NCBI GenBank assembly: GCA_964187785.1
Contig: OZ076409.1
Span: forward strand, 3,846,001-3,910,000
Direction of reading: 5' to 3'
Length of the DNA: 64,000 nucleotides
Origin: Amphiscolops sp. MND2022
Lineage: Eukaryota
Part shown: one piece after another, positions 1 through 41,363 of the stretch
Numbering within the stretch: the first letter of the stretch is position 1
Layout of the letters: each line of letters begins with the position of its first letter
Notes under the pieces: generated by a model
Told to the model about the DNA's origin: nothing
The model's database searches: none
What the model saw: only the letters and a program-made list of their open reading frames with translations
Made by a program: the position numbers and the translations under genes

Positions 1-259
1 CATCTATATTCAAGGGACGATTAATCAGAGAAAACTCTTCGTCGTTTTCGGCGATTATCACGCGGGGAACGTCGTGAAATGACACGTGCGGCCGATTTCT
101 ATTGGCTTGGGTTTCTGCCGAAGTAGGGCGGAACACATGATACGGTCTATTTTTGGTTTCTTGATCGGATGAATCGGATTCATCTGCGACTTCTTCATAA
201 CTCGGTAGCGTTTTTGTCGCCACTCGTTCGGATCGTTTCGGGAGGGATTCACCAAGATA

Positions 260-1543
260 CGGTTTAAGACGATTAAAATGGATATTTTGCCACTATTCCG
301 GGCAACCTGGCTTGCAAATCTGATAGTTCACTTCACTTGTCTGACTCAATACTTCGTATGGACCGTGCCAAGGGAGATGGAACTTTCTGGATTTCGCTTT
401 GTGTGGCTCGAATAGCCACACTCGGTCCCCTATTTAAAAACTTTCTCCATGGACCTTTTTCTGATAATAATCTTTTTGACGACGTTGTTTTTTCCCCATA
501 GTCAGTTGCGCATGACTATGCACTTCGAATAGTTTATCACTCAACTCGGCTCCTACCTCGCCTAATTCTAAACGGGGGTCGCCAGGAGGTTTCGGATAGA
601 ATAAGTCGATCGGATATTGTGCTTCTCTCCCGTACAACATCGAGAACGGGGTCGTACCGAAGGTCTTATGTACAGTGGTATTGTAGTGGGGCAGGTAGAG
701 ATCCCATTCGTGTGGTTTTTCGGCACAAAACTTAGAGATAGTATCGGCAATGACTCTATTGAATCTTTCTACTTGACCATTTCCTTGAGGATGGTATGGA
801 GAAGTTCTAGGTTTATCGATCATGAAAACTTGGCAAATATCTTTCATTACTTCACTGTTGAAGTTAGTTCCTTGATCCGTATGTAAAGTATCGGGAGCCC
901 CAAATTTCAAAATCCACTCTTCGACTAAAGTCGTGGCCACCGTCTTAGCCGTCATGTCTTTCAAAGGAACGGCAACCGCATACTTTGTATACAAATCCGT
1001 TATGACTAAAATGTATCGCGCCTGTGACTTTTTCGCTAGCGTTACGGGTCCCAAGATATCTGCTGCAACAATACGAAACGGCGCCTTTGCTTCAATTGTT
1101 TGCAAATGAGCTTTTCGACTTTTTCCCGCCGTTGATCTAGCCGCGCAACGCGTGCATTTTGCAATATACTTTTCTACAGTTGACCTGAGACCAGGCCACC
1201 AAAATCTCTGTTTAATCCTTGATAACGTTTTCTCGGCTGCAAAATGACCTCCGCTAAGAGGGGAGTCATGTAACTGATGTAACACTTCGGCTCTCATAGT
1301 CGAAGGAACTACTGCCTGCCATATTTCACGTTCACGATTGCTAGGTTTCCATTTTCGATAAAGGACTCGATTTGCCAGCGCAAGCTGGTCCCAATTACTC
1401 CAAAGTTCTAGCGCCTCTGGACAACTCCATCCTAATGCTATTTCTCGGGGGATGGGGTTGGGCCCTAAATCTTCCAATGTACCATCTATCCGAATTCCAC
1501 GTCTAACCATTTCACGGAAGAGTAATCCCGTACTACGATCCAT
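260..1543 (-). pseudogene. pol: Integrase of element 1 (H2C2 zinc finger, DDE core, GPY/F C-terminus), frameshifted
   Basis: ORF 434..1543: HDSPLSGGH...CTRC, ADILGP, TDQGTNF, YHPQGNGQVER. After a frameshift near 434 the frame reads DRVWLF...WHGPYEV...HFNRLKPY. Confidence 0.93.
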
Positions 1544-1557
1544 TCTCTGACCATACG

Positions 1558-3873
1558 CTAGGTCGCTATCCGATCTAGTCCATGAGATATGCCCCCCCCC
1601 ACTTGCTCTGATACTAACATTTCTTCAGGGGTAACGACGGAACAGGCGAAATCTACACTTGATGAACGCGGGGTACCTCGTCTTGTCGAAGTCGAAGGGT
1701 ACAATTGCTCTTGGTCTCTCGGTGTATACACGGAGATCACAAAATACGAATCTTGAAACACAACCTCTAGACAAATAGCTACATTCACCCACTCCAATTC
1801 GTCATCGACGAAACCTATTCTAGGCATTGCAAGTTTGGAAAATCCATGGGAACTAGCATGTTCTTTCACTCTCAATAGACTTTCTTTTAGTACATCGTAT
1901 TTAGCAACTTCTCCGTGGCAATGCTTGGTGATCAATATATACAAATATTGTCCTTTTGTGACATCTCGGTACACTAGAGAGCCTCCAACACGATTTACCG
2001 ACTCAGCAAGAGGGGGTAGATACGAATACGTTCTCACAAACGATTTCATGGGAGTAGTGGCTACTCTCATGTCGGCAGATACACACAAAACTAAGGAATC
2101 GGGGGATTCGAAAAAATCCCCTTCTCGATAACGGACTACCTCTCTAGGTGGGTGAGAAATTTGCATTTTCAAATGCCGAGCTACATCTTCTGAGTTTTCC
2201 AATTTCTCACGAGCTTTGGATCGGGCGGCTCGAAGATCGCGTTCGGCTTCAAACAAAGCACTATCAAATTCGGTGAATTCGGGAATCGGTCCTCTTAACG
2301 CCTCTTCTTCGCCGGGGAGCCATTGGGGTACGTCATTCGGTCGTCGACTAAGGCCGTCCGCATTACAATGTTTATCACCTGGACGATGTACTATTTGATA
2401 GTCATACTTCTGAAGTTTCTGAACCATTCGAAAAGTCATTCCATCCGCATTTTGCCTAAACAACCATTGAAGACTTGCATGATCTGTGCGAATAATACAT
2501 TTGGATCCGTAAATGTACGGTCTGAACCACTGGACGGCTTGAACTACACCTATCGCTTCTCTTTTGGTTGTTGCATAATTTACCTCCGTTTTAGTTAGAA
2601 CTCGCGACTCAAAGGCAATTGGATACTCTATCCCATCGATCACTTGCGACAAAACTGCGCCGAGCGCCGTATCACTAGCATCGGTATCAATAATGAACGG
2701 CAGTTCAAAATTTGGAAATGCCAAGATTGGAGCTTCTAACAATCTTTTCTTCAGCGTTCGGGACGCTTTGTCATGTTCTTCGGTCCATAAGAATTTTAAT
2801 CCTTTGCTCGTCAACAAATAAAGTGGCCTAGCCACTTCCGCGAAATTTTGGACAAACTTCCGATAATAGTTGCAGAAGGCAACAAATGAACGAACTCCGG
2901 TGACGTCGGTCGGGGGCTCCCATTCGCGTACTGCCGCTAACTTTTTCGGATCCGGTTGGATCCCTTCCTTGTTAATCACATGACCTAGATAGTGGACCTC
3001 GGTGCGGAATAAGTTGCATTTCTTCGGTTTAAGACGTAAACCGGCTTTGCGCAAAACTATAAACACCTTTTCTAAATGCTCCAAATGTTCTTCTGGAGTT
3101 TTGCTAAACGTTAGCACATCATCTAGGAATATGAGCACATGTTTATATAGATCTTCTTTAAAAATGTCGTTCATGTTCCGTTGGAAAGTTGGCGGGGCGT
3201 TCGTTAAGCCAAAAGGCATTTTCAAACACTCATATAACCCTCCATCCGGAGTACAAAATGCCGTTTTGTGCCGGTCTTCGGCCGCGACTGGAATCTGCCA
3301 ATAGCCACTTGCTAAATCGAGAGACGAGAAGACTCCCGCCCCTTGCAGTGCATCAATCGTTTGACCGATCCGAGGCAACGGATACGCGTCCTTTACAGTA
3401 AGGTCGTTCAACTTTCGATAATCTATACACATTCGGTTTGAGCCATCTTTCTTAGGTACCATTACTATGGGACTGCTGAAAGGACTTTTACTCGGTACTA
3501 TGACTCCTTTCTCAAGCATCTCACGAATTTCTTCGCGAACGGCTTCTAATTTATGCGGAGCAATTTTGTAGGGCGAAATTTTGAACGGTTTTGCATCGCC
3601 TATGTCTATGCGCTGTTCTAATTCTACAGCGGTTCCTAACGGGTCTGAAGGCAGTGAAAACACATCTCTGTAATCACGAATCAAATCTCGCAATTTTTCC
3701 TTTATTTCGGCATTCTCGAGTCCAGGGGTGGCTAAATTTAAAATTTCGTCAACTTCCTGTTCGAATTTTTCGTTAATTTCGGAGGCCGCTGATACTGTGT
3801 CAAGACCGGGTACCGTTTCGCAAACAAATGCGTCATCTTCCGGCGGGGGAACATGACCGCTTAGGACTTGCAT
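1558..3873 (-). CDS. pol: Pol fragment: reverse transcriptase + RNase H + TARG1/OARD1-like macrodomain
   Basis: 771-aa ORF. RT (CIDYRKLN, LDLASGYWQ, FLDD), RNase H (TDASD...E...TDH...ADGLSR), then a macrodomain-like segment at about 1726-2139. Confidence 0.95.
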   Translation of the reverse strand: MQVLSGHVPPPEDDAFVCETVPGLDTVSAASEINEKFEQEVDEILNLATPGLENAEIKEKLRDLIRDYRDVFSLPSDPLGTAVELEQRIDIGDAKPFKISPYKIAPHKLEAVREEIREMLEKGVIVPSKSPFSSPIVMVPKKDGSNRMCIDYRKLNDLTVKDAYPLPRIGQTIDALQGAGVFSSLDLASGYWQIPVAAEDRHKTAFCTPDGGLYECLKMPFGLTNAPPTFQRNMNDIFKEDLYKHVLIFLDDVLTFSKTPEEHLEHLEKVFIVLRKAGLRLKPKKCNLFRTEVHYLGHVINKEGIQPDPKKLAAVREWEPPTDVTGVRSFVAFCNYYRKFVQNFAEVARPLYLLTSKGLKFLWTEEHDKASRTLKKRLLEAPILAFPNFELPFIIDTDASDTALGAVLSQVIDGIEYPIAFESRVLTKTEVNYATTKREAIGVVQAVQWFRPYIYGSKCIIRTDHASLQWLFRQNADGMTFRMVQKLQKYDYQIVHRPGDKHCNADGLSRRPNDVPQWLPGEEEALRGPIPEFTEFDSALFEAERDLRAARSKAREKLENSEDVARHLKMQISHPPREVVRYREGDFFESPDSLVLCVSADMRVATTPMKSFVRTYSYLPPLAESVNRVGGSLVYRDVTKGQYLYILITKHCHGEVAKYDVLKESLLRVKEHASSHGFSKLAMPRIGFVDDELEWVNVAICLEVVFQDSYFVISVYTPRDQEQLYPSTSTRRGTPRSSSVDFACSVVTPEEMLVSEQVGGGISHGLDRIAT
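1726..2139 (-). other. Macrodomain (TARG1/OARD1/Poa1-like ADP-ribose-processing fold) within Pol
   Basis: VRYREGDFF...DSLVLCVSADMR...YLYILITK...YDVLKESL...KLAMPRIG..DELEWVNV...VF....ISVY is colinear with the TARG1 pattern YVKGDLF..DSLAHCISEDCRM..YIYYLITK..YENLQKSL..LSMPRIGCGLDRLQWENV..VF..ITVY (recalled from memory). Confidence 0.88.
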
Positions 3874-3962
3874 GGGTACTTTGATATTGAAACCATCATC
3901 TTTGGGGATCGTTAGGTTTGTTCGACTAAGTCAGTCGAGCATTGATTTTCCATCATGAATTT

Positions 3963-4628
3963 TTAGCCAATCATGATCTCAGGGTAGAGATCTTCCACAA
4001 CCACGAATTCATCGGAAGCGACGCACGTTCCGATTTTAACGTCTGCTTTTACGATACCTTTGGTAGGCATCTCGTTGGCTATTGGGCCTGTTAAACGACT
4101 GGGATTGGGGGCTATTGGGTTACCAATAGTCTTAGCCAATTCCAAACTCATCAAACTTCTACTCGCACTAGTGTCTATCATGGCCCAACACCGTAGGCTT
4201 TCTACTTCATAGGGGATTAAAAGCGTGGCCCCTGGAATGTATTGACTATGGGTCAGTTTTCTCGATTTTACCTCATCAGACCGGGCCTGATTTGGGAATT
4301 CTGGCTCTTTCTTGGACAAAATTTTCACGGAGCCAAGCTCAGCTTGTTTATCCTCAAAAAGATTTCGTATGGGGGGACTATTTACAACAGGGGTATGGGA
4401 TTCTTTTGGGAAAAAACCTCCTGGGCCAAACTCATCACTCATTTGTTTCCAAGTTTCGGAGTCGATCCGCCTACTGCGATTGCGCTGTCGCAAACGGCTA
4501 TCGTTACTCCTAGATCTAGAACGAACACGATGACTTGTTTGTGGAAAATTTGTAGCAGCTGGGGAAGGGATGGAATCCCAAGCGCGAGTAGAGCCTGCTA
4601 CTGCATACTCGGCTGTCGGTAGTTTAAA
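3963..4628 (-). pseudogene. pol: Aspartic protease region of element 1 (-1 frame after gag; DTG changed to DTS, frameshift near 3963)
   Basis: AMIDTSASRSLM...EIMIG. The frame is open from the slippery site at 4628 to the stop at 3963. Confidence 0.85.
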
Positions 4629-5998
4629 GAATTAGACTGCGGAAGACTTGGACATTGCTTAGCGTAGTGACCTATCGCCTTACAATTAAAACATTCCGCT
4701 TCTTCGGGGGGAGGGTGCGAAACATTCAGCTGACCCGACGATCCTGCCCTATTTAGAGGCGCACGGTAACTAGGATTGAAAGGGGCTTGAAAACGGGGAG
4801 GTTGCCAACTCTGAGGCTGCCCACCAACCGGCCGTTGCGAACTTCCTAACGCTCCTACGATCGCAGATGACATGTCTGTTATACTTTGTACTAGGGTTTC
4901 TGTTTGTCTGGTCGTCAGCTCGGCTTGTTTCGAGGAACTTTGTTCTAAGTGTTTTGTCATTTGATCGGTTTGCTTGGAAATTTGCTGACAGATGGAATTT
5001 TCGAAGCGATCAAAACGATTCGCCACATTGGTAAGTGATGTTTGGATGGCGGCGAATCTTTCTTCTATTTGACTACTATTCGAATAGCCAGCTCTCACTA
5101 GATCGGGATCCTCATATTCGTCATACGAATAACGCAATTTATCAAGTTTCCGCTCTCTTTTTGATTCGTGAGTCTTGTGGATTATTTCGAGTTCCTGTGC
5201 TCTTTGCAAAGTTTCCCCGAAATCACGGTCACGCTCGTCTTCATACAAACTAAGTTGTATTCGCGAATCAAAAAGCCCTTCAATAAATTGATCTCTCATA
5301 TCGCGTTCTTTTTCCCGGAGCGAATTTTCAGGAAAGGCTATATCAGCGAGTTGACGTACTCTTCTCGAGTAGTCTCTTAGGTCTTCATTTTCCCACTGTT
5401 TAACTGCTTTAAATTCCGACCGCGTAGCTCGCTGGCTGCGATAATGCTGCATTTTGGGTTTCAAAATTTCAAGTAGTTCATCAAACCGTGGAGGATAAGA
5501 ACCTGGTTCTTTTTCAATATATCTTTGGGGGACAGTTTCAAATTCTTCAATAGCCCACGATGTTAAACAAGTAGGCATTGCTGCAATTTTTTGACTATCA
5601 TTCCACCCATTTGCTTTAGCAACTGCTTTGAAGTGTTTTACCCAGCTTTCCCAGCGGTTGTAATCTTTGCCGGGTAACTTTTCTGGTTTTATTGGCGACT
5701 TTTCATATAAAGGTTTTTCTCTTCTTTTGGATTCAATTTTCAGAACCATGGAGTCGTCAGAATCTAGGTCTGCTTCAATTCTGAATCTTTTAATTTCTTT
5801 TTCCATTTCTTTCAATCGCCGATAAGCTTCTCTTTTACACTCCTTTTCCGCGTCGGCCAACCCTACGAAGGAAAATTTAGTGGACTTACTGAGGAGTGGC
5901 TTACTACCACCTGTGACGGGAGTATGGGTGCCGTTGGGATCTTCTTGGGTGACGGGGGAAATCTGCTGATCGTTGTCGTCGTCTCCAGACATCGTCAA
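4598..5998 (-). CDS. gag: Gag (capsid + coiled coil + CCHC zinc knuckle) of element 1
   Basis: 466-aa intact ORF. WESWVKHFKAVAKANGW capsid-like motif, RDQFIEGL, CFNCKAIGHYAKQC knuckle. Confidence 0.93.
   Translation of the reverse strand: MTMSGDDDNDQQISPVTQEDPNGTHTPVTGGSKPLLSKSTKFSFVGLADAEKECKREAYRRLKEMEKEIKRFRIEADLDSDDSMVLKIESKRREKPLYEKSPIKPEKLPGKDYNRWESWVKHFKAVAKANGWNDSQKIAAMPTCLTSWAIEEFETVPQRYIEKEPGSYPPRFDELLEILKPKMQHYRSQRATRSEFKAVKQWENEDLRDYSRRVRQLADIAFPENSLREKERDMRDQFIEGLFDSRIQLSLYEDERDRDFGETLQRAQELEIIHKTHESKRERKLDKLRYSYDEYEDPDLVRAGYSNSSQIEERFAAIQTSLTNVANRFDRFENSICQQISKQTDQMTKHLEQSSSKQAELTTRQTETLVQSITDMSSAIVGALGSSQRPVGGQPQSWQPPRFQAPFNPSYRAPLNRAGSSGQLNVSHPPPEEAECFNCKAIGHYAKQCPSLPQSNSLNYRQPSMQ
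4622..4628 (-). promoter_or_regulatory. -1 ribosomal frameshift slippery heptamer T-TTA-AAC at the gag/pol overlap
   Basis: In the gag frame the codons read tcT TTA AAC. The -1 frame is open without stops into ORF 3963..4493. Confidence 0.85.
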
Positions 5999-6084
5999 GA
6001 GGGGTTCGGCAACTCAAAGGGGTGAAGGGAAGATAAGGGAGAGAAGTAAGCAAAGAAAGAGGAACTGACAAAGACGCAAAGAAA

Positions 6085-6102
6085 GCCCACCCAGGAGCGC
6101 CA
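6085..6102 (-). promoter_or_regulatory. Primer binding site TGGCGCTCCTGGGTGGGC (tRNA-Asn-like)
   Basis: Starts 1 nt after the LTR-terminal CA. Its complement GCCCACCCAGGAGCGCCA resembles the 3' end of animal tRNA-Asn (GCCCACCCAGGGACGCCA). Confidence 0.8.
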
Positions 6103-6103
6103 A

Positions 6104-6903
6104 TGTAAGATTTTTAGTTTTCCAGTAGCTTTAACTATTTGTTGAGAATAGCTCCACTACAACTCAATTAAACCCGTAGGTACCACGCACGAGACAAGAA
6201 CTGGCTGAGTAGCTACATAAATTTTTATTAACTCCGAAGAAGAGACGAATCAACTTAATCGAAGGCGGTGGGGGTAAGTGTGACAAGGAAATCTCGATCT
6301 TTACAACTTTGCTAATTTTCCCTCTTTCAGGGGTTTGTCTCGCTACTCTTGGACTGTTTGAAATTCTCTTTTCGCTGATGAAAAGAAGCAGGTTGAACTT
6401 TAATTACTATACATCAAATAAATAAGTCGAGTGATAGACACAAATACAATTTCACATCCACGAATAATAGAATGAATAATATGATAACATCGATAATAAC
6501 GGAGAATATTACTGAGTATATTAGGAGGCATATTAGGAGGCATATTAGGAGGCATATAACACAAGAGAACAGTATACAAGAATTTCAGCAATTTTAAGTT
6601 TTTTTGTATCCGTAAGGATGAGGGTGATATCGAAGATATCGGAAGAATCAACTCGCCGCAAAATCTCTATCGGTCTTGGAGTGAAAACAACAATCCGTGT
6701 ATTATCAGCCCACTTAGGCTTAAACCGTGTATTATCAGCCCACTTAGGCTCAACCGTGTATTATCAGCCCACTTAGACTCAACCGTGTATTATCAGCCCA
6801 CTAAGGCTCAACCGTTTATTATCAGCCCACTTAGGCTCAACCGTGTATTATCAGCCCACTTAGGCTCAACCGTGTATTATCAGCCCACTTAGGCTCTTTT
6901 ACA
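6104..6903 (-). repeat. 5' LTR of element 1 (800 bp, TGTAA...TTACA)
   Basis: Inverted termini TGTAA/TTACA, adjacent PBS, AATAAA on the minus strand at 6224-6229. The partner LTR is outside the window, so the outer boundary is inferred. Confidence 0.75.
6695..6896. repeat. Tandem array, 7 copies of a 29-30-bp unit CCGTGTATTATCAGCCCACTTAGGCTCAA, in U3 of the LTR
   Basis: Units start at 6695, 6725, 6754, 6783, 6812, 6841 and 6870, with no spacers. Confidence 0.97.
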
Positions 6904-9900
6904 TGTAATACGATAGACCAGCAGTCCACCCTACTCCCGGGTCGAAATCCGTACTAGCGAAGAGCGGGGTAGCAACAAATCAGGCAACTTCAGGTTGTTA
7001 GGCTGAAGGCACGGGCTAACCGGCCAGACGAAGTAAATCTGCAATTTCGATAGTCCGGCGTCCGATGCGGGATGCTATCGGACGCAAAGCAGCAAACCGT
7101 TCTCTAGATTTCAACTCACTTTGTGTGTCTCTGAATTGACACACAGTTCGGCCTAAGTTACTTTTTCGGCAGTTTAGTCATATCATTATTCAAAGTTTAT
7201 CATCTTTCCTTTTTCGGGTTCTGACAAAGTGTTGAGCAATACAGTTTTTTCCTACTTCGGTACTGAAAGTTCATTAGAAGTACATTTTCTCAGCACGAGT
7301 CGGTCCTAGTTCCACCTCCTTGTCAATCATGACTGATGGTTTTACTTCGTTTTCAATAGAATTTAAGGGGTGGTGCTACTGACTCAGTTTTTCCCACTTT
7401 TGTAAGCACGACTTTAACTTCGGCTTATTGATTGACATTTGCATTTTTTGCCAAGTCTCTTTTTCCCACGCGGTTCCTGACAACTCTCTCCAGCTAAATC
7501 TGGCTGAAGGAAATAATTTTCTACAATTTACAATGACCTAAAAGGCGATTTTAATTCATATCTAAAAAAAGTCGATTTTCGTGTTACAACTTCTAAGGAC
7601 AAAAACTAGGTATTCCGATCACGGGGGGTTAGAACCAAGTACAACATTTGAAAGTACTATCCAAGGGCTACAAAAGCTTACTTCATGGTTTTTGTTCTAT
7701 GTCAACTCCTTCACGGTGAAAAACGCCTTTGAAATAAAGTAGTCAAAAATCACATATTGACATTTGCAAATTTCTCAAATATGGAGGGCTAGTACTCATT
7801 CAATTTGAAAGGTACAGCGTAGGTGCTTATATACATCGCTAGCCCAAGTCATTAGGAGTATTTTCCACTTTAGATGAGGTCTCTAGCTTGTTTCAACAAA
7901 ATTTGATAGCACTTTTACTGAAAGTAGTCATTTTCCCGATTTTTATGTCTAGACTTTCAACTTTGGAGGCCAATATCTCAAAACTAAGGCAATTTTCGGA
8001 AAAACGCTCCTGCTAAACGCTGAGTCTTGTGCGCCTGAGTCTTGTGCGTCTACCCTGAAAGTTTCAGCTCGATTTCGCCCAAAACGTGCGGGGGGGAGTT
8101 AGCATTTTGGTAGGTCGACATCCCTATCGGCAGAAAGAAATCACAACTTTAAATTCTTGGGGGTTCTTCGCTAGCGCGCCGCAGCACTCTATTTATTATT
8201 CTATTCTTTCCTCCACTTCAATTCGCAAGTACGCTGTGAAGGGGGCGGCTTTTGTGCGCTTACTCGTTGAGTACTAAGCGATAACATGCGAAAAACAGCT
8301 AATTTGGCCATTTTAGGGCTGTTTTTAACGTTTGCTGGCTCAGTTCTCAAAAACTACTGAATATTATTTGTTTTCCAATTGACACAAGTTAGGGCATTCC
8401 TTTATCTTTAATTTAAGCCATATCCGAACATTTTCTGACAACTGTAGCGATCACAGGAAATTTATAAAGGAAACTCAATTTTGGAAAGTCGTCAAAGATT
8501 TATACGCACTTATTTTCAAAGCTTCCCCCGATATGTTCTCGTCATTGCACGGGGCTCATATTCTCAACTTAAGCTCTCCTTTGGATGGGCTTTCGAATGC
8601 TGAAAACCGTTTGTTGCTATCTTTTTTCATCTTCGAGAAATTGGGTTTTGATTTTTAATTTCTATTAAGAGGGGGGATTAATTCAAAGTGTGCGGCGGCC
8701 GTTTTCTTATTAGCTACGCGTACAGCCACTCACATCGCGTTCTAATTTTCATTCCTTTCGCTTTCTGACACGCTTAGGTGAGTTGTATTCTATGCTGTTC
8801 ACGCACACAGCGGAGTTTTCACTCTCGCTTACCCTCAAACACATGTATTAACATAGTAATTTGACTGAATCTCTATTCACAGTCAACGATGACTTTAGGT
8901 TCAATTTTTGTGGGAATACGTTGGTTTAAAGTTCTTAATTGTCTACTCAACACGTAGTCAGGTCAAACAGGAACATTTCGGTGGTTTAATTTGTCTTGTA
9001 TTGGCAATAGTTGCCGAGAAATTCGATGTCAAAGTTTCTTTCCGATTAGAATTTTCATACATAGTTCTGAGTGGTGGCGGCCGTATTACTGCATTAATAC
9101 GTTGCGCGGTCGCTTCATTGTAGCTAAGAATAGTTATTTTGGTTGTCAACGGGACTAAAGACAATATTATTGACATTAAACAATAGTGCGAGGTACTTGA
9201 AGTACTTGTTGTAATCTTTACTTTTATACGATATCACCCCCGGAAAATCTACCTTGCTGATGAAATAAAATTTAATAAACACCATAACATGAGCGAAAAG
9301 TCAAAAATCCTACAGTTTCCCACCTGTTCACCCTAGCGGTTAACACCGATTTCCAGACCTATTACTAAACAAATAGTAGAGCACCGTCCGAAAAGTCCAG
9401 TCGTTGGAGTTTTTTTGGAACTAAGCGAAATTGTTCCAGTGTTTTTTTTGCCGATGCTCTCAATTTTTGGTAGAAACAAAGCGATTTGAGATTATAGAGG
9501 ACCACTGAGCGTTTTTCGGCACTGTGAGACTTCTCGAAGAATCTTTTAGAAAAAAAATGTTTGGAGATTTGTTCCACAAAATTCAATTTATTTGACGTCA
9601 ACATGATTGGTTCTTCTGGAACTCAAAGAATATCTTTTCACTCTTTGAAAAACTTTCGGCTTGAAAAAAGTGTTTTGCCTGTTTGATTGGTCCCTTTTTG
9701 TGTTTTATGTCACTTTGAGATGTATCCACAAAAAGGTTGGTTTCAAAAATCGGGTTTTTTGATGTTTCCAGCTCATATGAAAATTTTGATAAACATTTTT
9801 AAAAAGAGTGTGCTTTATTGCGTAGTTTTGTATGTAGTTACAAAAGTTTACTGAGCTTGAACCGTGATTGACGCGCCGCTTTGTGATTTTCCCAGCTTGT

Positions 9901-31538: not shown

Positions 31539-34116
31539 CTAGGAGGATTTAAATTCTATAAAGACTTTAGCAGGACTTTCCGGTACAGCTATTACATTTG
31601 GTAATTTTGTGTCATAGTCCTGAGAGTTAATATCGTTGACATTAGTTCGGTGTGTCTTTTGCAGTGATTGAAATGATGAATACTTACTGGAATATTTAGG
31701 AGGTAAATACGGGAAGTCATTATCAGAGTATCTTCTCAGTTTATTGTGTAATTCTTTTTCCGGCAATAGGATATTATCACTTTCGCTTGTTGTAATTTTG
31801 TGTTTAGTATATATCCGTTTTCGTTTTCCTGTATTGTTCAAATCGGTTATCATTTACGATGTAACTATATTTAAAAATCCATGGGCTATTGAACTCAAAA
31901 TGGGAATGTTGCTTTGGAGATTATATTTTATGCTAATTGTTCTGTAGAATTTGAGTAAAAGTGTTAAAACTTCTCTAATGAAAAGAAATGTTGAAAAGTA
32001 AATTCCACATTGTGTTAAAACATAACATGGATATCCAAAGAATTTAATGAATGCTTGACTGAACCAGTCAGGGTTGAAAAGTGGTAAGAGGTTTAACAAG
32101 TGGTCATGCACTCCAATCCTTAAATGATTATAAGGATTGTATCCTGAGTAGGAATTTATCATTATGCACTGTGTTGAAATCATAGCTTAATGATTTTCCA
32201 AGTAATTGAAGAGTTGTGTCTGAGTGTTTAGCGAATAATACTCTGTTCCAGAATTGATCTAATTCTGCATTTGAGTATATACCGGCATCTTGGGCGGTAA
32301 ATGTATCAGGAGTGATTGTTGTTTTAATTTGGGCAGGTTTAAACATTTGTGGTGCTTCTCGTTTGAGTGGTTCTGGTGTTAACACATAAAAATCTCCGTC
32401 GTTAGAATCTGGGTCTAATTCGATTATATTTTGTGGGTTGTTTCCACATTCAATTGGTGTTGCATAGTTAAAAGTTTGTCTTGTTATAGGATCAACATAC
32501 ATTATAGTTTCTCTATAGTGTATGGGAATTCTATCAAAGCATTTATCTGCCTTGTATAGTGGTGATATAAAATGAGGGCAATCATACAGCCATGCTGTAG
32601 ATCCTTCAACGTAGAGAAAGTTACTACGATTTCCAGTTAAAAGAAAACCGGCTAATTGAGGATTCTTAACTGACATAGCTAAGATTGTTAACAATTGAGT
32701 TCTTTCCATTTCACATATTGTATGAAGGGTGTTTAGTTCTTGTACTGTCATGGATTTAAATACATGATTTATTTTGAAATCAATTTTTGTATTAATGTGG
32801 GCATCGTAGTCTAAAGTGGCGAAATTGTTTGATATATTCAATGCAGGGAATGTATACCTTTTATTTGAGTCATCATATTTTATGTTTCCACTAATTGTTT
32901 GATCATTTATTGAGTGTGGTTTTGGTTGTCCTGTGTTCATATCAAAACCATCTAAGTATGTAACAAAGATGTCATCATATTGTGTTGAGAATAATGGTTC
33001 AGGTTTTCCACAAAAGGTTTGTGCAATTGGGTATATTTCAAATCGAGAAAGGCTTGGATTGCTTACTTTTGATTGTGGTGTTTTCACATTGGGATATCTT
33101 GTTCCTTGTATTCCTTCGGTTTGAAGTTTTTGTGTGATGTTTGAAGTTCCAATGAAGGTATCGGTTTCTATCCAATATCTATCATTAATTCGTGTCATTC
33201 TACCAATGAATTCTTGAAGTTGAAATATGAGGCAAAATTTTTCATCAAACCATGTTAATGTGTATGGAGTTTTTGTTGTTGGTTTACAAAATCAGTCTAA
33301 ATGATAGCACGGTAATACGTGTCCGTCATGTATTAATTGATTGTTTTTATCATCATAGTCTATTGCGGTGTTAACAATTCTAAGTTTCCAACTTTGTCGG
33401 GTAATTAAATGTTCTCGGTCGGCTCGACATCTGGAGTATGTATTTTGTGTAACATTAACTATCCAGTCGGGATATTTTTCATCGAATACGAAGGTTCCAA
33501 TATGCCATGTGTTTAATTTCTTTACTCTAAATGGTTTTTGAATTCGTTCAATTTTGTTTTGATAGTTACTATCGTCGAACAATGAGAAAGAGCTTTGTAT
33601 ATTGTAATTGTTTAATTCTTCGCTATCAGTCGCGTTTAAATATCTTATCATGTTTTTGCATTCAATAGGGTCTAATATTTTTGGAAGTTCTAATGTGTTT
33701 TGTCCCCATTGTTAACGATCATATCGTCTACTAGATGTGAATGTTTGTGAACACCAGACCTTTTCAGTCTTTATATATGCTTCGCATTTAAAGGCTTTTA
33801 TTCTTTTGGCTTTTGCTCTAACATAAACTGTTGCTTGGGTTTTTTTGTGTTGTATATCTGAAGGTGCTTGTTTACATGGTTCAACATTTAATAAACTGAA
33901 TTGTCTTAAGTTGTTTTGTTTTGCACAATCAAAATGGGATACCATTAAGTTTAAAATGTTGGGGTCTTGGTCTGAAATATGATTTTCTGAATTGGTTGTG
34001 TCAACTTTAGGAACAGTTGACGGGTGAACTAAAGAGTGAACTATGTGTATTATATATATGTATTCAACAACATGTATTATGTATACTAGGTATAGGTTAA
34101 AGGTTATGTGATTCAT
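31539..34116 (-). pseudogene. env: Envelope glycoprotein, class III fusion type (herpes gB/chuvirus-G-like), with in-frame stops and one frameshift
   Basis: Hydrophobic leader, HFDC..RQFSLLNVEPC..FKC..WC, ICEMERTQLLTILAMSVKNPQLAG..EGSTAWLYDC, CFDRIPI..YVDPITR..PIEC, TM FFGYPCYVLTQCGIYFSTFLFI. ORFs 33712..34116, 33292..33651 and 32128..33198 share one frame separated by single stops. Confidence 0.88.
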
Positions 34117-34129
34117 GGTTAAAATATTG

Positions 34130-35680
34130 GTTAAAATGTTGTTCTATAATTAAGTCCTGAGTAGGGATTAAAGAAGTTTATATGTCCTGTTCTAATCTCA
34201 GGTAATTCTGCGTCACAAAAGTAAGAAATGGATGTGACTATGAATGGTGAAGGGGTTGTTTTGTGTGCTACTCTTGTTGAAAGACAAAATGGATGAGGTC
34301 CTAACGAATTGAATGTGACTTCTACTTCAGATTTTAATATGAGTTGTTGTTCTTGTAGTCTTCGTAATTCTTTTTGTTTTCTTTGAGTTGAAAGTGAGCT
34401 ATTGTTTATAAATCTTGCAGGTAATACTGTGTATCGAGGGTCTTCGTTAAGAGTACGAACAATTCTTGAATTAACACGGATAGGATATTCGTGAGGGTTT
34501 GGTGTTGGAGGTCTTGAAAAATCTTCTAAAAATATTCAGGTAGTTGTATAGAAGAGTTTGATGTTATTGAACTAGGTGAATAAACTTGTGAAAAATTAGC
34601 TGCGCTATCTGATATAGTTATTGGGTCTTCAGAAAGAAGAGAAGCTGTTTCAAATCCTGATGTGATTTGAAATGGTAGTGACAAAGAAGATGGTATAGTG
34701 GGTTGAGATGAGGAAAGAGAAGGAGTGTCTAATCTGGGTTGGGCTTGCTGTCTAACTAGTCTTGAGTTTGTACTTGAACTAATTAAAGGTTGTAATTCCT
34801 GAGAATTTCTTCGTTGTTGAGATCTAAGGTTATAATTATGTCTTGGTACTCTAGTACTGGCAGTTGAGTCAGAATTTTTATCTTTGTGATATAAATCTGT
34901 TAAAGAAGAGGTAGTAGTTGAATGTACACGTTCTAATTCAAGTTTGGGATATATTTGAGAAAATGTGAATGAACTTAGTTCAGATGGTGATGGAATTGGG
35001 TGTTGTTGTAATTTCTACACTGGTGCCTTTAATGAAGTTTCTGGTAAGAATGTTATTGGAGTATAACTTGTTGATGGTAAGTTGGGGTTTTGTGGTAGTT
35101 TGGGTGGAGTATGACTTGTTGATGGTAAGGTCTTGTGGTAATGTAGGTAAAGGAGTTTTTCTTTTTGTTTTATTGCTGTTGGTATTTTTTGTGGACAAGA
35201 ATTTATGTATTGCAGAACTGAGCTGGGGTCAGGGATATAAACGGAACGAGTGGTAGTAATTGATGGAAGAGGAGGTCTATTTAAAATACTTGAAGTATCT
35301 TGTGTAGTTGGTGTTGTAAGTGTTTCATCATTAGAGTCAGTAACTGGTGAACTTGTTTCTGAAAATACTAAATTTTGTGAAATAGGTTGTGGTTGAGTTG
35401 TTATTACTGGTGTTTGAGTCTGGGATATAGGTGTATTGGTGGGTGTTGCTGGTACTCTATCAGGAGTATATGGAGCGGATGGACTGGGGCTTGAGGATGA
35501 GGAATCCAGAATGTCTGTATCTGAGTTTAAATATGCTGTAAATTCAGGTAATGTTTGGAGTGAATGTGTTGAACTAGAAGATGAATTATTTGTGGTTGAT
35601 GATGGTGAATGAGTATGTCTATCAATTCTGAAATCTTTTGTGTTGTGGTAGTTTGCTTCAAATTGTAAGTTAGTTAGTTT
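34130..35680 (-). pseudogene. Ser/Thr/Pro-rich coding region between integrase and env (largely missed by the ORF track)
   Basis: ATG-less open frames such as HSPSSTTNNSSSSSTHSLQTLPEF..PSAPYTPDRVPATPTNTP and EDFSRPPTPNPHEYPIRVNSRIVRTLNEDPRYTVLPARF..RTGHINFFNPYSGLNYR. Confidence 0.6.
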
Positions 35681-35823
35681 TATATTAATTAGAGTTTCTT
35701 TCTTTTATTATCACTTGTGAAAAAATTTTTTTCATTCAATTTCACATTAAGTTTCAAACTTTCTTTCTTTCTTTCAAATTTTCTTTCTTTCTGTATTTCA
35801 ACAGGATTTTTGAGAAAGTGAAT

Positions 35824-38800
35824 TTATATCCTTTTCACCAAGGAAAAGTCGATAGTCTTTTCTTGGTTGTGGGCGGAAATTGTATCTATTATAGGAGTGT
35901 CTTTTGGGGTAAAAAAATTATCATAGTCATGAATGTCTGATTGGTTATCTGAGTTGGTATTTTTAGAAACTTGTTCTTTTTCTTGGTACGGAAATGAAGA
36001 ATATTGGCTAAATGATTCCGGTTGGAAGTCGATTGTGGATGGTATATCCGTTTCTTTATTAAACTTTGTGGAAGAAAATTGATCTTCGTCACTGAATTGG
36101 TTTTCATCGGAGTCAAAAGATTTTATTGGATCGTTTATATTCGAATAATTATCATTGAGTAAATGAGGATTATACTGTTGTAGGAAAGGAAAAATAATTG
36201 GTTCTTTTGGATAGTAAGGAACTAAATGGTTTCTGTGTATGTGAGATATGTAACTATCTTGATTAACAATTTCATATGTTATATCGGAAATTTTGTTAAT
36301 AATTTCAAATGGTCCAATTCTGAGAGGTTTTAATTTGTCGGAAAAATGAACATGGAGCAAATTTCTTTTTAGTACAAATGTACCAATATCCAAGGGTCTC
36401 GGATTGTGGTATGTTTTGTTAAAATAAGCGTAGGAATTAATTTTTCTTTTTGTGTTTTCATATACTGTGTGGTATAATTGTATCATAGCTGTTTCAGTAG
36501 CTAAGATCCATTGAGGGATCGGTTTAAATAAAATTTTATGGAAGAAGGGGTTTAGATTTGATTTGTCATAGTGTGTATGAAGTGGTAATTCTTGACGATA
36601 TTGGGAAGTACAATTTCTATAGGTATCTCTTTGGAGATTGAGTTCAAAATTGATTGGAATTCTGGGTATATTATGAAATACTATTTCAAATGGAGATAAG
36701 TTCATTTCAGAAAGTGGTTGTGAATTATGTGCATAGGCATACATATGAACTTGAGTAGACCAGTTTTCTCGAGTGGCATGTAAGAAAAGTCTGAGATGAG
36801 TTCCAAGATTTCTGTTTTGATTTTCAACTAAACCATTAGTCCATGGTGCATAAGGAGTTCTTGGTGAATGTCTAATTCCCATTGTGGTACAAAGGTTTGC
36901 GAATTCGGAATTAATGTATTCTGATCCACGGTCGGTAACTAGGTATACAGGAGGTCCAAATTTTGTTATCCAATGATGAAGTAAGGAGTTAACAGCGTTC
37001 TGAGCATTATTTTGTTTTATAGGTGAGTTTTATAAGTGACTAAAAGCGTCTACTATAACATGAATGTATGGGTTTTGATTTGATGGTGGGTTTATAGGTC
37101 CTTTTGTATCCATTGATATTCGGTAGTTGAATGATGAAGCATTTTCTGAAAATGTTTGTATGGATGCAGTTTGTATTTTTTGGTTATTATGTTTATTTTG
37201 TTGACATTCAATACAATCATGGATGAATATTGACATCCATTTATTCAAATATGGTATGAAGTAAAATTGGTTGAAAGCTTTGATGGATATTTTTATTTCT
37301 GAGTGTCCATGAGCGTGAAGTTTGTTAAAAGCTGCATGGAAGAGGTTAAATGGTAAACATATTTTGTCTCTTTGATTCGGGTTTGAATCGTGAAGATTAG
37401 GATAATCTATGTGAAAAATTTTTGTATCATGGTTAATATACAATTGGTTGAAAATTTTATAATATACTAATAAGAAAGAATTTGCTGCAATTGTTGGGTC
37501 TATTTGTAAGGGTCTTTCATTATTAAGTACCCATTGGTAAACTTTTTGTAAAACAGTGTCTTGTTCTTGTTGCGTTTCTATTGTTTCAATTGTTATTTGT
37601 GTATCTTCTGGTAGGAAGAAATAATTAAAATATCTTTCGTATTTGAAGAAAGATGGATCAAAAAATGGAACTTGTTGATTACAGTAATCGGATTTGGTAG
37701 GATATTGTATAGCAAGTGTGTGTTCTTTTAATATGTCTGAGTTTTGATGTTGGATGATATTTGATTGAGTAAGTTCATCGTCATCCCTGAGAATATCAGT
37801 ATCATTAAGAATTGTCGATTGTTGTAAGAGGGATTTTGTTTGGTTTATTGTAGGTTTTTTATATTTCGATTCAAATGTAACAATAGATTGAAAAGAGAAA
37901 GAATCTAAAGGTTTTATGTGGATATCTTCTCCTTTGTTATTTATACAGATAGAGAATTGGTCGTCTCCGTAGTCAGCAAGAATAGGATGACAATCATTCT
38001 TTTGATTATATTTGATTTCTTCGTGTTTTACTAAGTAGTGTACTGGTTTGAGTTGATTATCTTTCATGATAGAGAAATCTATTTGAGGTGGTAATTGTTT
38101 GTGTCGTAATTGATGTACTTGTAATTGTTCTTTTGTAAAAGTTCGTGAAAGCATATCTGCTACAGTTAAGTTTTTCCAGGGGTATGAATGATTTTCAGTT
38201 TGGAGAATTTGGTTAATTGCATTTGTGCTCTATAGAATCTAGGACTAAGATTTCCTTTCTTTGCAAAACAATGTAGTAGAGGTTTGTGATCTGTGAATAT
38301 GTATATGGGATGAGGAGATCCAATGATCAAAAATTCATATATTTGTAATGCGTAAACTATTGCGAGAAGTTCTCTGTCTAAAGTTGAAAGTTTTTGTTCT
38401 TGTGTGTTAAGAATTCTGGAGTTATAAGAGATTACTTTCATTTTGTTTTCTTCGTTCATTTGGAATAAGACTGCGCCTAAACCAACTAACGAAGCGTCTA
38501 CTGTTATGAAAAATGGATGCGTTGTATTGGGTATGGTTAATTCAGTGTCTGCTGTCATTGCATTTTTTACATTTTGAAATATTTTTCCTAATTCAGGTGT
38601 CCATTGGAATTTAACATCATCATGTAGTAATGTATACAATGGTTTTAGGTTTATATGGAGTTTTTCAATGAATTCTGAATTGAATTTAACACTGCCAAGA
38701 AATTGCATAACATCTTTCTTTTCTTTTGGTGATGGAATTCTTTTAATGGCGTCAATTTTGGATGGAATCGGTTTGATTGTGTTATTACCAATTTCGTGTC

Positions 38801-41363
38801 CAAGGAACTTTACTTTGAGTAACATGTAGAATGATTTTTCGGGTGCAAGTTTGAGATTTTCTCGAGATGCTCTTTTATGTAATTCTTTTATAAGTTCAAA
38901 CATTTCTTGTTTTTCATTTGCGAGTAGTAAAATATCATCAATATACACTAACGCAGAACGTTTGTCTTTAAGTGGTCTAAAGAAAGTTGACATTTGTTTT
39001 GTGAAAAAGTTTGGAAGTCCCTTTAATCCGTAAAATCCACGGATAAAGGCGTATAGTTTGTCACCGGATGAAAATCCTGTTTGTTTGATTGTTTCTTCGT
39101 CTAATGGTGTATGAGCATAGGCATACATTAAATCAATAGTTGATTTATATTTTTTAATGGCTCTAGCTAATTGAGGAGCTAAAGGTTCAATATGCCAAGA
39201 ATCAAGTTCTTGGTTGGTGTTTGAGTTTAAATGTCTTGCGTCTAAGACAACTTTTATTGCGTAACCTTTGGGGATAATAATTAAAGGGATTAAAAATGTT
39301 GTTCCAATTGTGTGTTTTTCATCTGAGTTGGAACCATTTTGTTTTATTATTGTATTTTTCGAGTTCTAGTAAAAGTTTATTTAGTCTATCTCTGTAGTGA
39401 ATTGGTACTTTAGAAGGTCTTTGTGTTTGAAGTTTACAGTTATCTTTTATTCTAATTCGAAAGGAAGTAGAAATTTTTCCTACGTCGTTCTTATGTTTGG
39501 CGTAACAATTTTGATTATCAATCAAAATATTGCAGAGGTTTACATTTTCTGTATTGGTTAAATCTGAGTATTCAAAGTAAAACTTTTTTTATGAATTGTT
39601 GGTTTTCTGTAGAATATGGTAATGGAGGAAAATGTTTTCGAATTTTATCTGAGGGTCGAAGATTTCCAGTAACAGAAGGTATAGGAAGTTGAAGTGTTTT
39701 GTCTTTGATTTCTATTTTGTTAATTTCTAATAGGGATTGTGGTATTACCCTAGTACATAAGTTCATATCTGCATATGGATTTTGTTTAATTGGAGTTGTG
39801 GTATCAGGATGATACGCATGTTTTACAGAGTGAATAAGTGAGTTTACATCATTAACTCTAAGTGAGGAGGAGTTGTTTGAGTAATAGGGATTTCTATGTA
39901 TCCAATGATTCCTCGTGGTAATGTAGCTGGGTAAAATGTAAAGTTTTGAATTATGGTTGCACAAGAGTCGTTGCTTTTTTCATTGACTATCATATCCAAG
40001 AAATGAAAGATATCTTTAAATTTTTGTAAGAAGAATGTTTATGGGTTTGTTGGATAAAATTTTGTATTATCTTCAAGTTCAAAATGTAGATTTGAATAGT
40101 TTTTAATTGGGAAATGTATGGTTTTTCCTGACCTTGGTTTAAAGTGAATTGGTTCTTTACATTTAATAGTATAGATGTAAGAATTATATGGGTAATCTTT
40201 TTCTGTAAATGTGGAAAATGTTGTTTTTGTTGAAGCTTTGGATGCTGTTCTATGTAAGTCATAATATTTTGTTGAAAATCGATATTTTGGATGTGTGTTT
40301 TGAAAAAGGGTGTCCCAAGAATGTTGTATTTGATATTGGCTACAGCGAAATTGATATCGAAGGATCGCGTTTGATGGTTTACTTCAGTAAAACAGGTCAT
40401 CGAAATATAGTGTATTATTGGTACTTCAGTTTGGTTTGCAACTGTAAGAGTTTTGGCTCTTTTGTTTTCAAGATTGGTTGGAACATTGATGTTTAAATGT
40501 TTGGAAATTACATGAATTGGTGGTAAATTCAAAACAGATATGGATGCTCCAGTATCTAAGAGGAATAAGATTTCTAATTGTGAAGGTAATATGTTTTCAT
40601 TTGTTTCAGAAGCACGAACATATAGTGGGTAAAACCAACTATAAGGAGTAATTGTATTAGCGATTTCAGTTATTTGACAGGTGTGGATTTCAAATTTTGT
40701 ACTATCATTGTCTTTTGTAGATTTAACGTCTACTTGATTTATTCTGTTTTGTTGTCTGTTTCGTGAGGGTGTTCTAGATGGTGATCTAAAATCTCTAGGT
40801 CTTGATGGAGATCTATATGGATAATTATATCGTTTAAAAGAGTTTCCTTGTGATTGAGAACGGGATCTATATCTTGAGCGAGAGTTATATCTGTAATTTG
40901 AGTTATTTCTGTATGGAGATCTATATGGAGATCTAGATGGAGTTCTTCGTTGATAATAATTATCAAATCGAGATCTATATGGACTTCGAGTTCGATTGTA
41001 ATATCTTTGTCGAGAATTTATTCTATAGTTGTTTTGCGAATATTCTCTACTATAGCTACGATATCTATCATTATTTCTGTATCCATAGTAATTTTGATTA
41101 TATTTGTAACGATCGTTATCTGAGGAGTAAGTATTTGTATTGTCATTTCGAGTTTCTTGTGAGTTATTAGGTTTACTGCGAAAATATTGTACAAAAGATT
41201 GTTGAGGAGTTCGTGATCTTTGGTTTTTGTATTTCTGGTATTCATCATCACGTTGTTTTTGATAACAGTTTGAAATACCATGATTATTTTTGTGACAAAA
41301 GGAACAATATTTTTTATAAGCTGGTTTGCTTATGTTATTTGGGTCTCCAGATTGAGTAACCAT
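35824..41363 (-). pseudogene. pol: Gag C-terminus and Pol of element 2 (CCHC, RS-rich tract, protease, RT, RNase H, long linker, integrase), several frameshifts
   Basis: CSFCHKNNHGISNC, LLDTGASIS, YIDD, VDAS..RELLA..TDHKPL..ADMLSR, HAHGH..CIEC, MDTKGP, TDRGSEY, PWTNGLVE, GPFEI. Confidence 0.95.

Follow-up and report, generated by a model that had tools for sequence, protein, structure and literature searches.

A TARG1/OARD1-derived macrodomain with replaced ADP-ribose loops in the Pol polyprotein of a Ty3/Gypsy retrotransposon family

A macrodomain between RNase H and integrase

Why would a retrotransposon carry, in the middle of its Pol polyprotein, a relative of enzymes that erase ADP-ribose, and does this domain still act as an eraser? 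TARG1/DarG-type enzymes are erasers of protein and DNA ADP-ribosylation, and macrodomains are counter-defence tools of RNA viruses. The question is raised by a 64-kb stretch of the genome of Amphiscolops sp. MND2022 (contig OZ076409.1; hereafter the window, with position 1 as its first letter), in which the minus-strand segment 1726–2139 translates into 138 amino acids (aa) with zero stops. A first-pass annotation had proposed that this segment is a TARG1/OARD1-class macrodomain carried in frame between the RNase H (RH) and integrase (IN) of a Gypsy Pol, and that it serves as an ADP-ribose eraser or reader that would be packaged with reverse transcriptase and integrase. The domain and its place in Pol were borne out. 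The eraser reading was not sustained for the family of elements to which the window copy belongs (family A), since all 48 copies compared have other residues in the two glycine loops that bind phosphate.

Identification rests on sequence and on predicted structure. In a phmmer search against all PDB sequences, human OARD1/TARG1 was the sole significant family, with five distinct chains at E 5e-16 to 6.9e-16 and an end-to-end alignment that places query residues 2–138 on chain residues 8–144 with one 2-residue gap. HMMER searches of a representative library of 1.84 billion proteins returned 581 relatives at E<=1e-3, of which 52 reach E<=1e-10; NCBI lists one of them, P0032, as ‘ADP-ribose glycohydrolase OARD1’. 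AlphaFold2, run on a 72-row alignment, gave a model with mean pLDDT 93.7 and pTM 0.87. Foldseek comparison with the PDB placed TARG1 at ranks 1–8 (E 1.9e-12 to 1.7e-10, TMq 0.82–0.87; best match 4j5q, E 1.9e-12, TMq 0.86, 34% identity), followed by DarG (TMq 0.77–0.81), Poa1p and viral Mac1. The predicted fold is a macrodomain, and the RNase H-like tether fold that had been named as an alternative is set aside. Together, these sequence matches and the structural model mark the segment as a macro fold descended from a hydrolase of the TARG1/OARD1 type.

The Pfam Macro model gave no match to the 138-aa segment at E<=1. The absence of such a match had been proposed as a reason to abandon the identification, but we consider it uninformative: given how strongly the segment matches TARG1 in direct sequence and fold comparisons, it does not count against homology, and the miss is a sensitivity limit of the model for the TARG1 branch. 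Nearest clusters in the ESM Atlas were phage-dominated macro-domain clusters, and nothing was gained from them beyond ‘macro’. Membership of the MacroD-like class of viral Mac1 was also rejected, as viral macrodomains rank below TARG1, DarG and Poa1p in Foldseek at 9–11% identity.

The element containing the domain is an LTR (long terminal repeat) retrotransposon of the Ty3/Gypsy type on the minus strand, present in the window as a defective copy. Its assignment follows from a CCHC-type gag, the order protease (PR), reverse transcriptase (RT), RNase H and integrase, matches to the RT_RNaseH and Integrase_H2C2 models, and an LTR pair. A 790-aa open frame at 1558–3930 (minus strand) holds RVT_1, RNase H and the macrodomain, which is the sole macrodomain in the window. 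Pol of this copy is split into four frames (3963–4631, 1558–3930, 434–1624 and 2–292), with the integrase domains (frame 434–1624) in a different frame from RT, RNase H and macrodomain. The 3' end of the element is cut off at the window start, and the window holds the 5' LTR only. Window positions 3–6867 align to positions 1684–8547 of an intact copy (L031) at 95.9%. The features are as follows.

1726–2139, minus strand: TARG1/OARD1-derived macrodomain, 138 aa, identified by translation, TARG1 match and predicted fold; Pol aa 832–969 in intact copies
2140–2403, minus strand: 88-aa linker from RNase H to macrodomain, no family match, dN/dS 0.115 (20 intact copies)
2404–2787, minus strand: RNase H (RT_RNaseH / RT_RNaseH_2), frame aa 382–509, E 8.7e-33 and 8.8e-31
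2974–3459, minus strand: reverse transcriptase (RVT_1), frame aa 158–319, E 6.3e-36
1558–1725, minus strand: start of the linker from macrodomain to integrase; the frame of the window copy shifts within ~1558–1624, and intact copies read through
788–1309, minus strand: integrase, with Integrase_H2C2 at 1133–1309 (E 1.6e-21) and the rve core at 788–1084 (E 1.2e-12), in frame 434–1624
2–292, minus strand: integrase/Pol C-terminal part, in yet another frame, truncated by the window start
3963–4631, minus strand: N-terminal Pol with aspartic protease, parted from RT by a break at ~3930–3963; the protease is Pol aa 136–233 in the intact copy
4598–6013, minus strand: gag, 471 aa, whose CCHC zinc knuckle lies close to the C-terminal end (zf-CCHC on the equivalent L031 frame)
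6104–9321, minus strand: 5' LTR, ~3.2 kb, matching the 3' LTR of L031/L064; the match ends at 9321
~6691–6896: 29-nt tandem repeat of ~6–7 units inside the family LTR (8372–8576 in L031)

The first-pass annotation had located the insert immediately after the ADGLSR motif of RNase H. It does lie downstream of RNase H, but not directly, as the 88-aa linker intervenes.

Replaced loops and constraint in family A

The insert is not a peculiarity of the window copy, a possibility that had been raised as a weakness. A six-frame search of the 1.07-Gb genome with the macro segment found at least 911 candidate places. Among the 150 of the 911 that were scored, all lie at 88–100% identity to the segment and 52 sit in open Pol frames of 1609–1612 aa (counted from the table of places). 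The intact copy L031 encodes a 471-aa gag with a CCHC knuckle and a 1610-aa Pol comprising protease (136–233), RT (392–553), RNase H (616–743), macrodomain (832–969), integrase zinc-binding domain (1108–1166), integrase core (1183–1281) and a p58 C-terminal motif. Family A, young and present at very high copy number, was recently active, since the LTRs of the pair L031/L064, ~3.2 kb each, are 99.43% identical over the 2105 nt compared. The macrodomain is present in all family-A copies examined, in a search that was seeded with the macro segment. A sister family, A2, is multi-copy and intact, with open frames of 1614–1619 aa; it was exposed by a search with the relative P0020, which had been considered as a divergent copy from the Amphiscolops genome and was rejected as such because its best genomic match is 48%.

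Residues are numbered here after TARG1 (D20, S35, G41, G43, I44, K84, G123, L124, D125), with positions fitted to the phmmer alignment. Across 149 tabulated TARG1-like segments, there is almost no variation in loop 1 (M-[GS]-x-G-I-[AS]) or loop 2 (I-G-C-G-L-D), and the combination of R-V-x-x-x-P-M with G-[CTV]-V-D-D is confined to the window's relatives (P0003–P0014, P0019, P0020). Family-A residue counts come from 48 distinct genomic copies. Loop 1 reads R-V-A-T-[T/A]-P-M in 48/48, in place of the glycine-rich loop of TARG1, and loop 2 reads G-C-V-D-D in 48/48 (V or I across the clade), in place of the TARG1 glycine. Relative to TARG1 the substitutions are G41A, G43T/A, I44P, G123V and L124D, and the state of each tabulated position is as follows.

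G41: A in 48/48
G43: T or A in 48/48
I44: P in 48/48
G123: V in 48/48
K84: K in 48/48
D125: D in 47/48
D20: D in 48/48
S35: S in 48/48

In TARG1, substitution of G123 abolishes ADP-ribose binding. The residues singled out in the first-pass annotation are as it described: the segment has the lysine of LITK and the aspartate of MPRIG..D, with VATTP at the place of GAGIA in the phmmer alignment. The Phe in the window copy's MPRIGF is private to it, the residue being Cys in 47/48 family-A copies.

Variation extends to further ligand-contact and catalytic positions when the window's clade is considered as a whole. At D20, the Asp is exchanged for Glu in A2 and P0017 and for Asn in P0019; at K84, the Lys gives way to Arg in A2 (4/4 fetched copies) and to Ile in P0019; and at D125, P0018 has Asn in place of Asp. 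Family A2 thus combines Glu at D20 and Arg at K84, along with Ile at G123. The trio that replaces G-x-G in loop 1 differs among clade members (ATT, LNL, STA, KTP, KLL, TTA), and other signatures are conserved (MRV, PM..F, G-x-[VI]-D-[DN]-x-L-x-W and NVAICLE.VFQ). This pattern suggests that fold and surface are constrained, whereas the positions for ligand contact and catalysis have been released or altered, as in a repurposed pseudo-enzyme. The clade is set on a long stem (0.96 changes per site, support 100) in a macrodomain tree of 148 segments and 138 columns, of which 71/145 inner branches are unresolved. Its apparent placement outside all other macrodomains was rejected as a midpoint-root effect of that stem. 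The tree of 148 segments does not separate one capture by retroelements from several, and their origin may be single.

Selection was estimated by the Nei–Gojobori method in 20 copies with uninterrupted Pol frames, one further copy of the initial 21 (L051) having been dropped for an offset alignment. The dN/dS ratio was lowest in RT (0.012), followed by RNase H (0.040), protease (0.068), the linker before the macrodomain (0.115), the integrase core (0.157), the linker after the macrodomain (0.190), the macrodomain itself (0.194) and the Pol C terminus (0.293), with 0.135 for Pol as a whole. Macrodomain variants common to at least two copies comprised 12.5 nonsynonymous and 25.5 synonymous changes, against a neutral site ratio of ~3.4 to 1. 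The comparison of families A and A2 is a stronger test: 85/140 macrodomain residues are identical (61%), with pN 0.26 and a saturated pS of 0.78. Judged from these substitution patterns, the macrodomain is under purifying selection and has been kept over a long divergence, in line with the expectation that it would not evolve neutrally. The omitted copy L051 (G000:C3:74822225-74827077) is open over 1610 aa and loses register with the other copies downstream of the macrodomain; compared position by position, 164/174 residues of its integrase core differ from other copies.

Related LTR families and competing explanations

When the toad OARD1 protein was used as query, 988 more candidate places emerged in the genome, and the 150 of the 988 that were scored lie at 41–51% identity. 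At least five other LTR-element families in this genome bear a TARG1-like macrodomain, in four different polyprotein positions. Representative copies, with their open reading frames (ORFs), are these.

Family B (L059): Pol of 1646 aa, macrodomain 855–992 in the RNase H/integrase interval, third ORF of 808 aa after Pol
Family C (L062): Pol of 1617 aa, macrodomain 832–969 in the RNase H/integrase interval, third ORF of 788 aa
Family D (L060): Pol of 1853 aa, macrodomain 312–453 upstream of RT
Family E (L061): single ORF of 834 aa, macrodomain 606–743 after protease 377–468, without RT or integrase
Family F (L063): frame of 1737 aa or more, macrodomain 1535–1677 after integrase

All of families B–F have loop 1 as M-[GS]-x-G-[IVF]-A and loop 2 as I-G-C-G-[LN]-D; a Pfam scan of their frames at E<=1e-4 gave a Macro match in family F alone. 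The eraser reading proposed for the window element fits these families better, because the canonical motifs are kept there, and from their sequences we infer that they encode working TARG1-type hydrolases. The family-A RT is 44–46% identical to those of B and C versus 25–34% to those of D and F, and the family-A macrodomain is 35–36% identical to those of B and C and 30–36% identical to those of the canonical families overall. Ancestry of a B/C-like kind is indicated for family A by this RT affinity, B and C having the RH-macro-IN order in common with it and keeping canonical loops. The simplest history would be that the window's clade arose from a lineage with this order whose domain looked active.

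Several of these elements have features of their own. Family E is non-autonomous. Its copy L061 (G000:C1:97799000-97808900) has LTRs at 848–2800 and 7564–9521, of 1.96 kb and 99.2% identity, around an ORF at 2993–5494 whose 376-aa N-terminal part has no assigned family, and dozens of copies with open frames of 833–837 aa are among the toad OARD1 matches listed. The third ORFs of ~800 aa that follow Pol lie at 7067–9490 in the B copy and 387–2750 in the C copy. The family C third ORF matches Baculo_F below threshold (E 3.6e-5; 23.0 bits, where the cut-off is 24.1), and families B and C may be envelope-carrying elements. Apart from the LTR families, a single-copy 315-aa frame (L058, G000:C1:46433556-46434500, minus strand) carries a canonical TARG1-like macrodomain at aa 178–314 with 51% identity to toad OARD1; its N-terminal 176 aa gave no family match, and it is a candidate host paralogue or domesticated copy.

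Retroelement-borne macrodomains also occur in the representative library, where 5/64 matches of at least 240 aa bear retroelement domains. They are the following.

P0115 and P0116: macrodomain after integrase
P0117: 1651 aa with RT-RH-IN, macrodomain 1178–1310, then a Tpt1/KptA match at 1353–1513 (E 3.1e-6, just above the family cut-off)
P0121: sub-threshold RVT_1 match
P0147: RNase H then macrodomain

In the gastropod Nucella lapillus, P0147 and P0168, two members of one cluster recorded as ‘hypothetical proteins’, run from RT (479–637) through RNase H (702–830) to Macro (883–981). If the Tpt1/KptA match in P0117 is real, an NAD-dependent nucleic-acid modifier and an eraser would be paired in one Pol. 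Cellular TARG1-like domains in the library are fused to DNA ligase (P0047, P0141), LIG3-type BRCT (P0030, P0084, P0085, P0162), PNK3P with FHA (P0166), TatD DNase (P0129) and NADAR (P0043), and two or three TARG1-like domains stand in tandem in P0021–P0024, P0028 and P0029. The fusions to DNA ligase, LIG3 BRCT, PNK3P and TatD suggest that the domains of the canonical LTR families may act on nucleic-acid ends or on replication-complex proteins.

What, then, does the domain do in family A? Most likely it no longer binds or hydrolyses ADP-ribose in the manner of TARG1 and is kept as a non-catalytic module of Pol, a reading that we favour on balance and with some reserve. A Gypsy lineage with the RH-macro-IN order would have acquired an active TARG1-like hydrolase, which in the window's clade would have been repurposed: both glycine-rich loops for the ADP-ribose diphosphate would have been replaced, catalytic and adenine-contact residues would have drifted among clade members, and the domain, lying between RT-RNase H and integrase, would have been retained in, for example, a structural or interaction role. 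A non-hydrolytic, repurposed fold is the best reading because the loops are replaced family-wide and D20, K84 and D125 vary in the clade. The caveat already attached to the altered loop, that it could mean a non-catalytic domain, is favoured by the same loop changes and clade variation, and the window copy is a broken member of this derived, probably non-catalytic lineage. Four points weigh against this account. Family A retains K84, D125, D20 and S35 at the frequencies given above. Of the clade members without K84 or D125, P0018 and P0019 are short predicted fragments, maybe decayed, and A2 alone is documented as intact. The dN/dS of the linkers is as low as that of the macrodomain, and the selection signal is therefore not domain-specific. 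Intact frames were the basis on which the 20 copies were picked, with macrodomain divergence from the window copy as an additional basis for 18.

The same retained residues (K84, D125, D20 and S35, in 47–48/48 copies) lend some weight to a hydrolase of TARG1 mechanism with a changed substrate or binding mode, which would clear ADP-ribose from the element's own proteins, RNA or cDNA. The intact fold (AlphaFold2, Foldseek), the purifying selection on the domain and the fully canonical motifs of the sister LTR families are compatible with such an enzyme, and the frequent fusion of TARG1-like macrodomains to DNA-end enzymes in the library would fit a nucleic-acid substrate. We nonetheless consider it unlikely: both phosphate-binding loops are replaced, by trios that vary within the clade; the intact, multi-copy family A2 differs at K84, D20 and G123; and P0019 has Ile at K84 and P0018 Asn at D125. 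Binding in the absence of catalysis seems improbable as well. A reader of ADP-ribose or poly(ADP-ribose) could steer the pre-integration complex to ADP-ribosylated chromatin or proteins, which would suit the macro fold confirmed by Foldseek, the purifying selection and a location adjoining integrase, where other Gypsy elements bear targeting modules (PMC6338049 lists chromodomains among accessory domains). However, the loop changes that oppose hydrolysis oppose ADP-ribose binding too, the adenine-contact Asp is D, E or N in the clade, and the family-A domain, with a net charge of ~-1 and pI 6.5, is less basic than canonical domains (pI ~9). Nucleic-acid binding, judged by charge, was likewise found to be unsupported for a domain so near neutral. 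Least probable of all is that the domain is a functionless passenger, captured, decayed and carried in frame amid two essential domains. The loss of canonical motifs, the similar dN/dS of the flanking linkers and the rank of the macrodomain as the least constrained folded Pol domain after the C terminus agree with decay. It is countered by the 61% aa identity of A and A2 despite saturated synonymous sites, by the conservation of new clade motifs (MRV..PM..F, G-x-[VI]-D-[DN], NVAICLE.VFQ), by the confident and compact AlphaFold2 fold, and by the finding that 0/150 scored copies were without the segment, though this search was seeded with the segment itself.

The favoured reading, a non-catalytic module in family A, can be set within a wider and more doubtful scenario. 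LTR retrotransposons in certain invertebrate genomes might routinely carry TARG1-type hydrolases, hosts might ADP-ribosylate retroelement nucleic acids or proteins to restrict reverse transcription or integration, and the window's family might represent a later stage in which the eraser has turned into a pseudo-enzyme, as a decoy or interaction module. Routine carriage is proposed because there are at least six macro-bearing families with four domain positions, including a non-autonomous element with protease and macrodomain. The host defence that the first-pass annotation had proposed, with ADP-ribosylation directed against retrotransposon cDNA or proteins, is a reasonable hypothesis.

The remainder of the window is mostly retrotransposon sequence. 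A second, unrelated Gypsy-type element without a macrodomain occupies 32128–43602 (minus strand), with gag at 41654–42946, RT-RNase H at 38166–39365 and integrase at 35824–38229; its ORF at 32128–33291 matches a Monjiviricetes-type viral fusion glycoprotein (E 1.7e-19). Integrase fragments of other retroelements (Integrase_H2C2, rve) lie at 58030–59040 and 60122–60847 (minus strand).

Significance and likeness to known systems

No description of a macrodomain in a Gypsy/Ty3 Pol was found in full-text literature searches, whose coverage is without most subscription journals, Repbase and Dfam, and it may have been described elsewhere before. In public records such proteins go under the name ‘hypothetical protein’. 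The finding belongs with two known kinds of observation, the capture of accessory domains by LTR retrotransposons and the presence of macrodomains in viral polyproteins. In the available part of PMC6338049, a chromodomain and a DnaQ-like exonuclease are named as accessory domains of retrotransposon polyproteins, and a macrodomain is not.

Finding a TARG1-type domain in Pol of highly successful retrotransposons suggests that the replication of animal retroelements is affected by ADP-ribosylation, because such domains occupy four polyprotein positions, keep canonical motifs in the five other families sampled and number thousands of candidate places in a single genome. Whether ADP-ribosylation restricts retroelements becomes a testable question, with concrete proteins at hand. 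The window's family offers a natural contrast, in which the fold is kept under selection and the ADP-ribose-binding signature is lost, and it may reveal other roles of the macro fold in a replication complex. If the host restriction reading is true, these elements would provide a eukaryotic parallel to DarT/DarG and to the conflict between PARPs and viral Mac1.

Among known proteins, human TARG1/OARD1 (C6orf130; PDB 4J5Q/4J5R/4J5S, 2EEE, 2L8R) is the best sequence and structural match to the window domain. The two have in common the LITK lysine, the MPRIG....D aspartate and the GD and C[VI]S motifs. TARG1 is a stand-alone protein, whereas the window domain is embedded in a retrotransposon polyprotein, and in the window's family G41-A-G43-I-A of TARG1 becomes A-T-[T/A]-P-M, G121-C-G123-L becomes G-C-V-D, H32 becomes L and KPTY becomes AKYD. 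The closest parallels in context are families B–F and the Nucella lapillus proteins, which have the same domain class in LTR-element polyproteins; B, C and the gastropod proteins share the RT-RH-macro order. Families B–F differ from the window's family in keeping canonical loops and, by their motifs, look catalytically competent, and the position of the domain also differs in D (upstream of RT), F (after integrase) and E (after protease, in a non-autonomous element).

The macrodomain of the DarG antitoxin (PDB 5M31, 5M3I, 5M3E) forms the second-best structural class (E 6e-8 to 7e-7) and belongs to the same TARG1-like branch, but it shares 16% identity with the window domain, has canonical binding loops and acts in a bacterial toxin–antitoxin context. 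DarG acts on ADP-ribosylated DNA, and TARG1/DarG remove ADP-ribose from acidic residues, phosphorylated nucleic-acid ends and thymidine in single-stranded DNA.

RNA-virus Mac1 domains (alphavirus nsP3, coronavirus nsp3, hepatitis E virus) counter host PARPs and, like the domain in the window's Pol, are macro folds within a polyprotein, in their case the viral replicase. Their structural matches are weaker (3gqo, E 3.1e-6; 3gpg, E 1.1e-5; Foldseek), and they differ in belonging to the MacroD-like class, at ~10% identity, in having canonical ADP-ribose-binding loops and in occurring in RNA viruses rather than retroelements. Macrodomains of the SARS-unique domain bind G-quadruplexes according to the title of PMC2674928, and offer a precedent, by likeness of described function only, for a viral polyprotein that retains a macro fold for a purpose other than ADP-ribose binding. 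Among reverse-transcribing elements, some epsilon-like endogenous retroviruses of ray-finned fish have additional ORFs for macro domain proteins, as PMC4977317 states with attribution to Basta et al. 2009. As in the window element, a macro domain of cellular origin has there entered a reverse-transcribing element, but in the fish retroviruses it is an additional ORF, whereas in the window's family it is a domain inside the Gypsy Pol.

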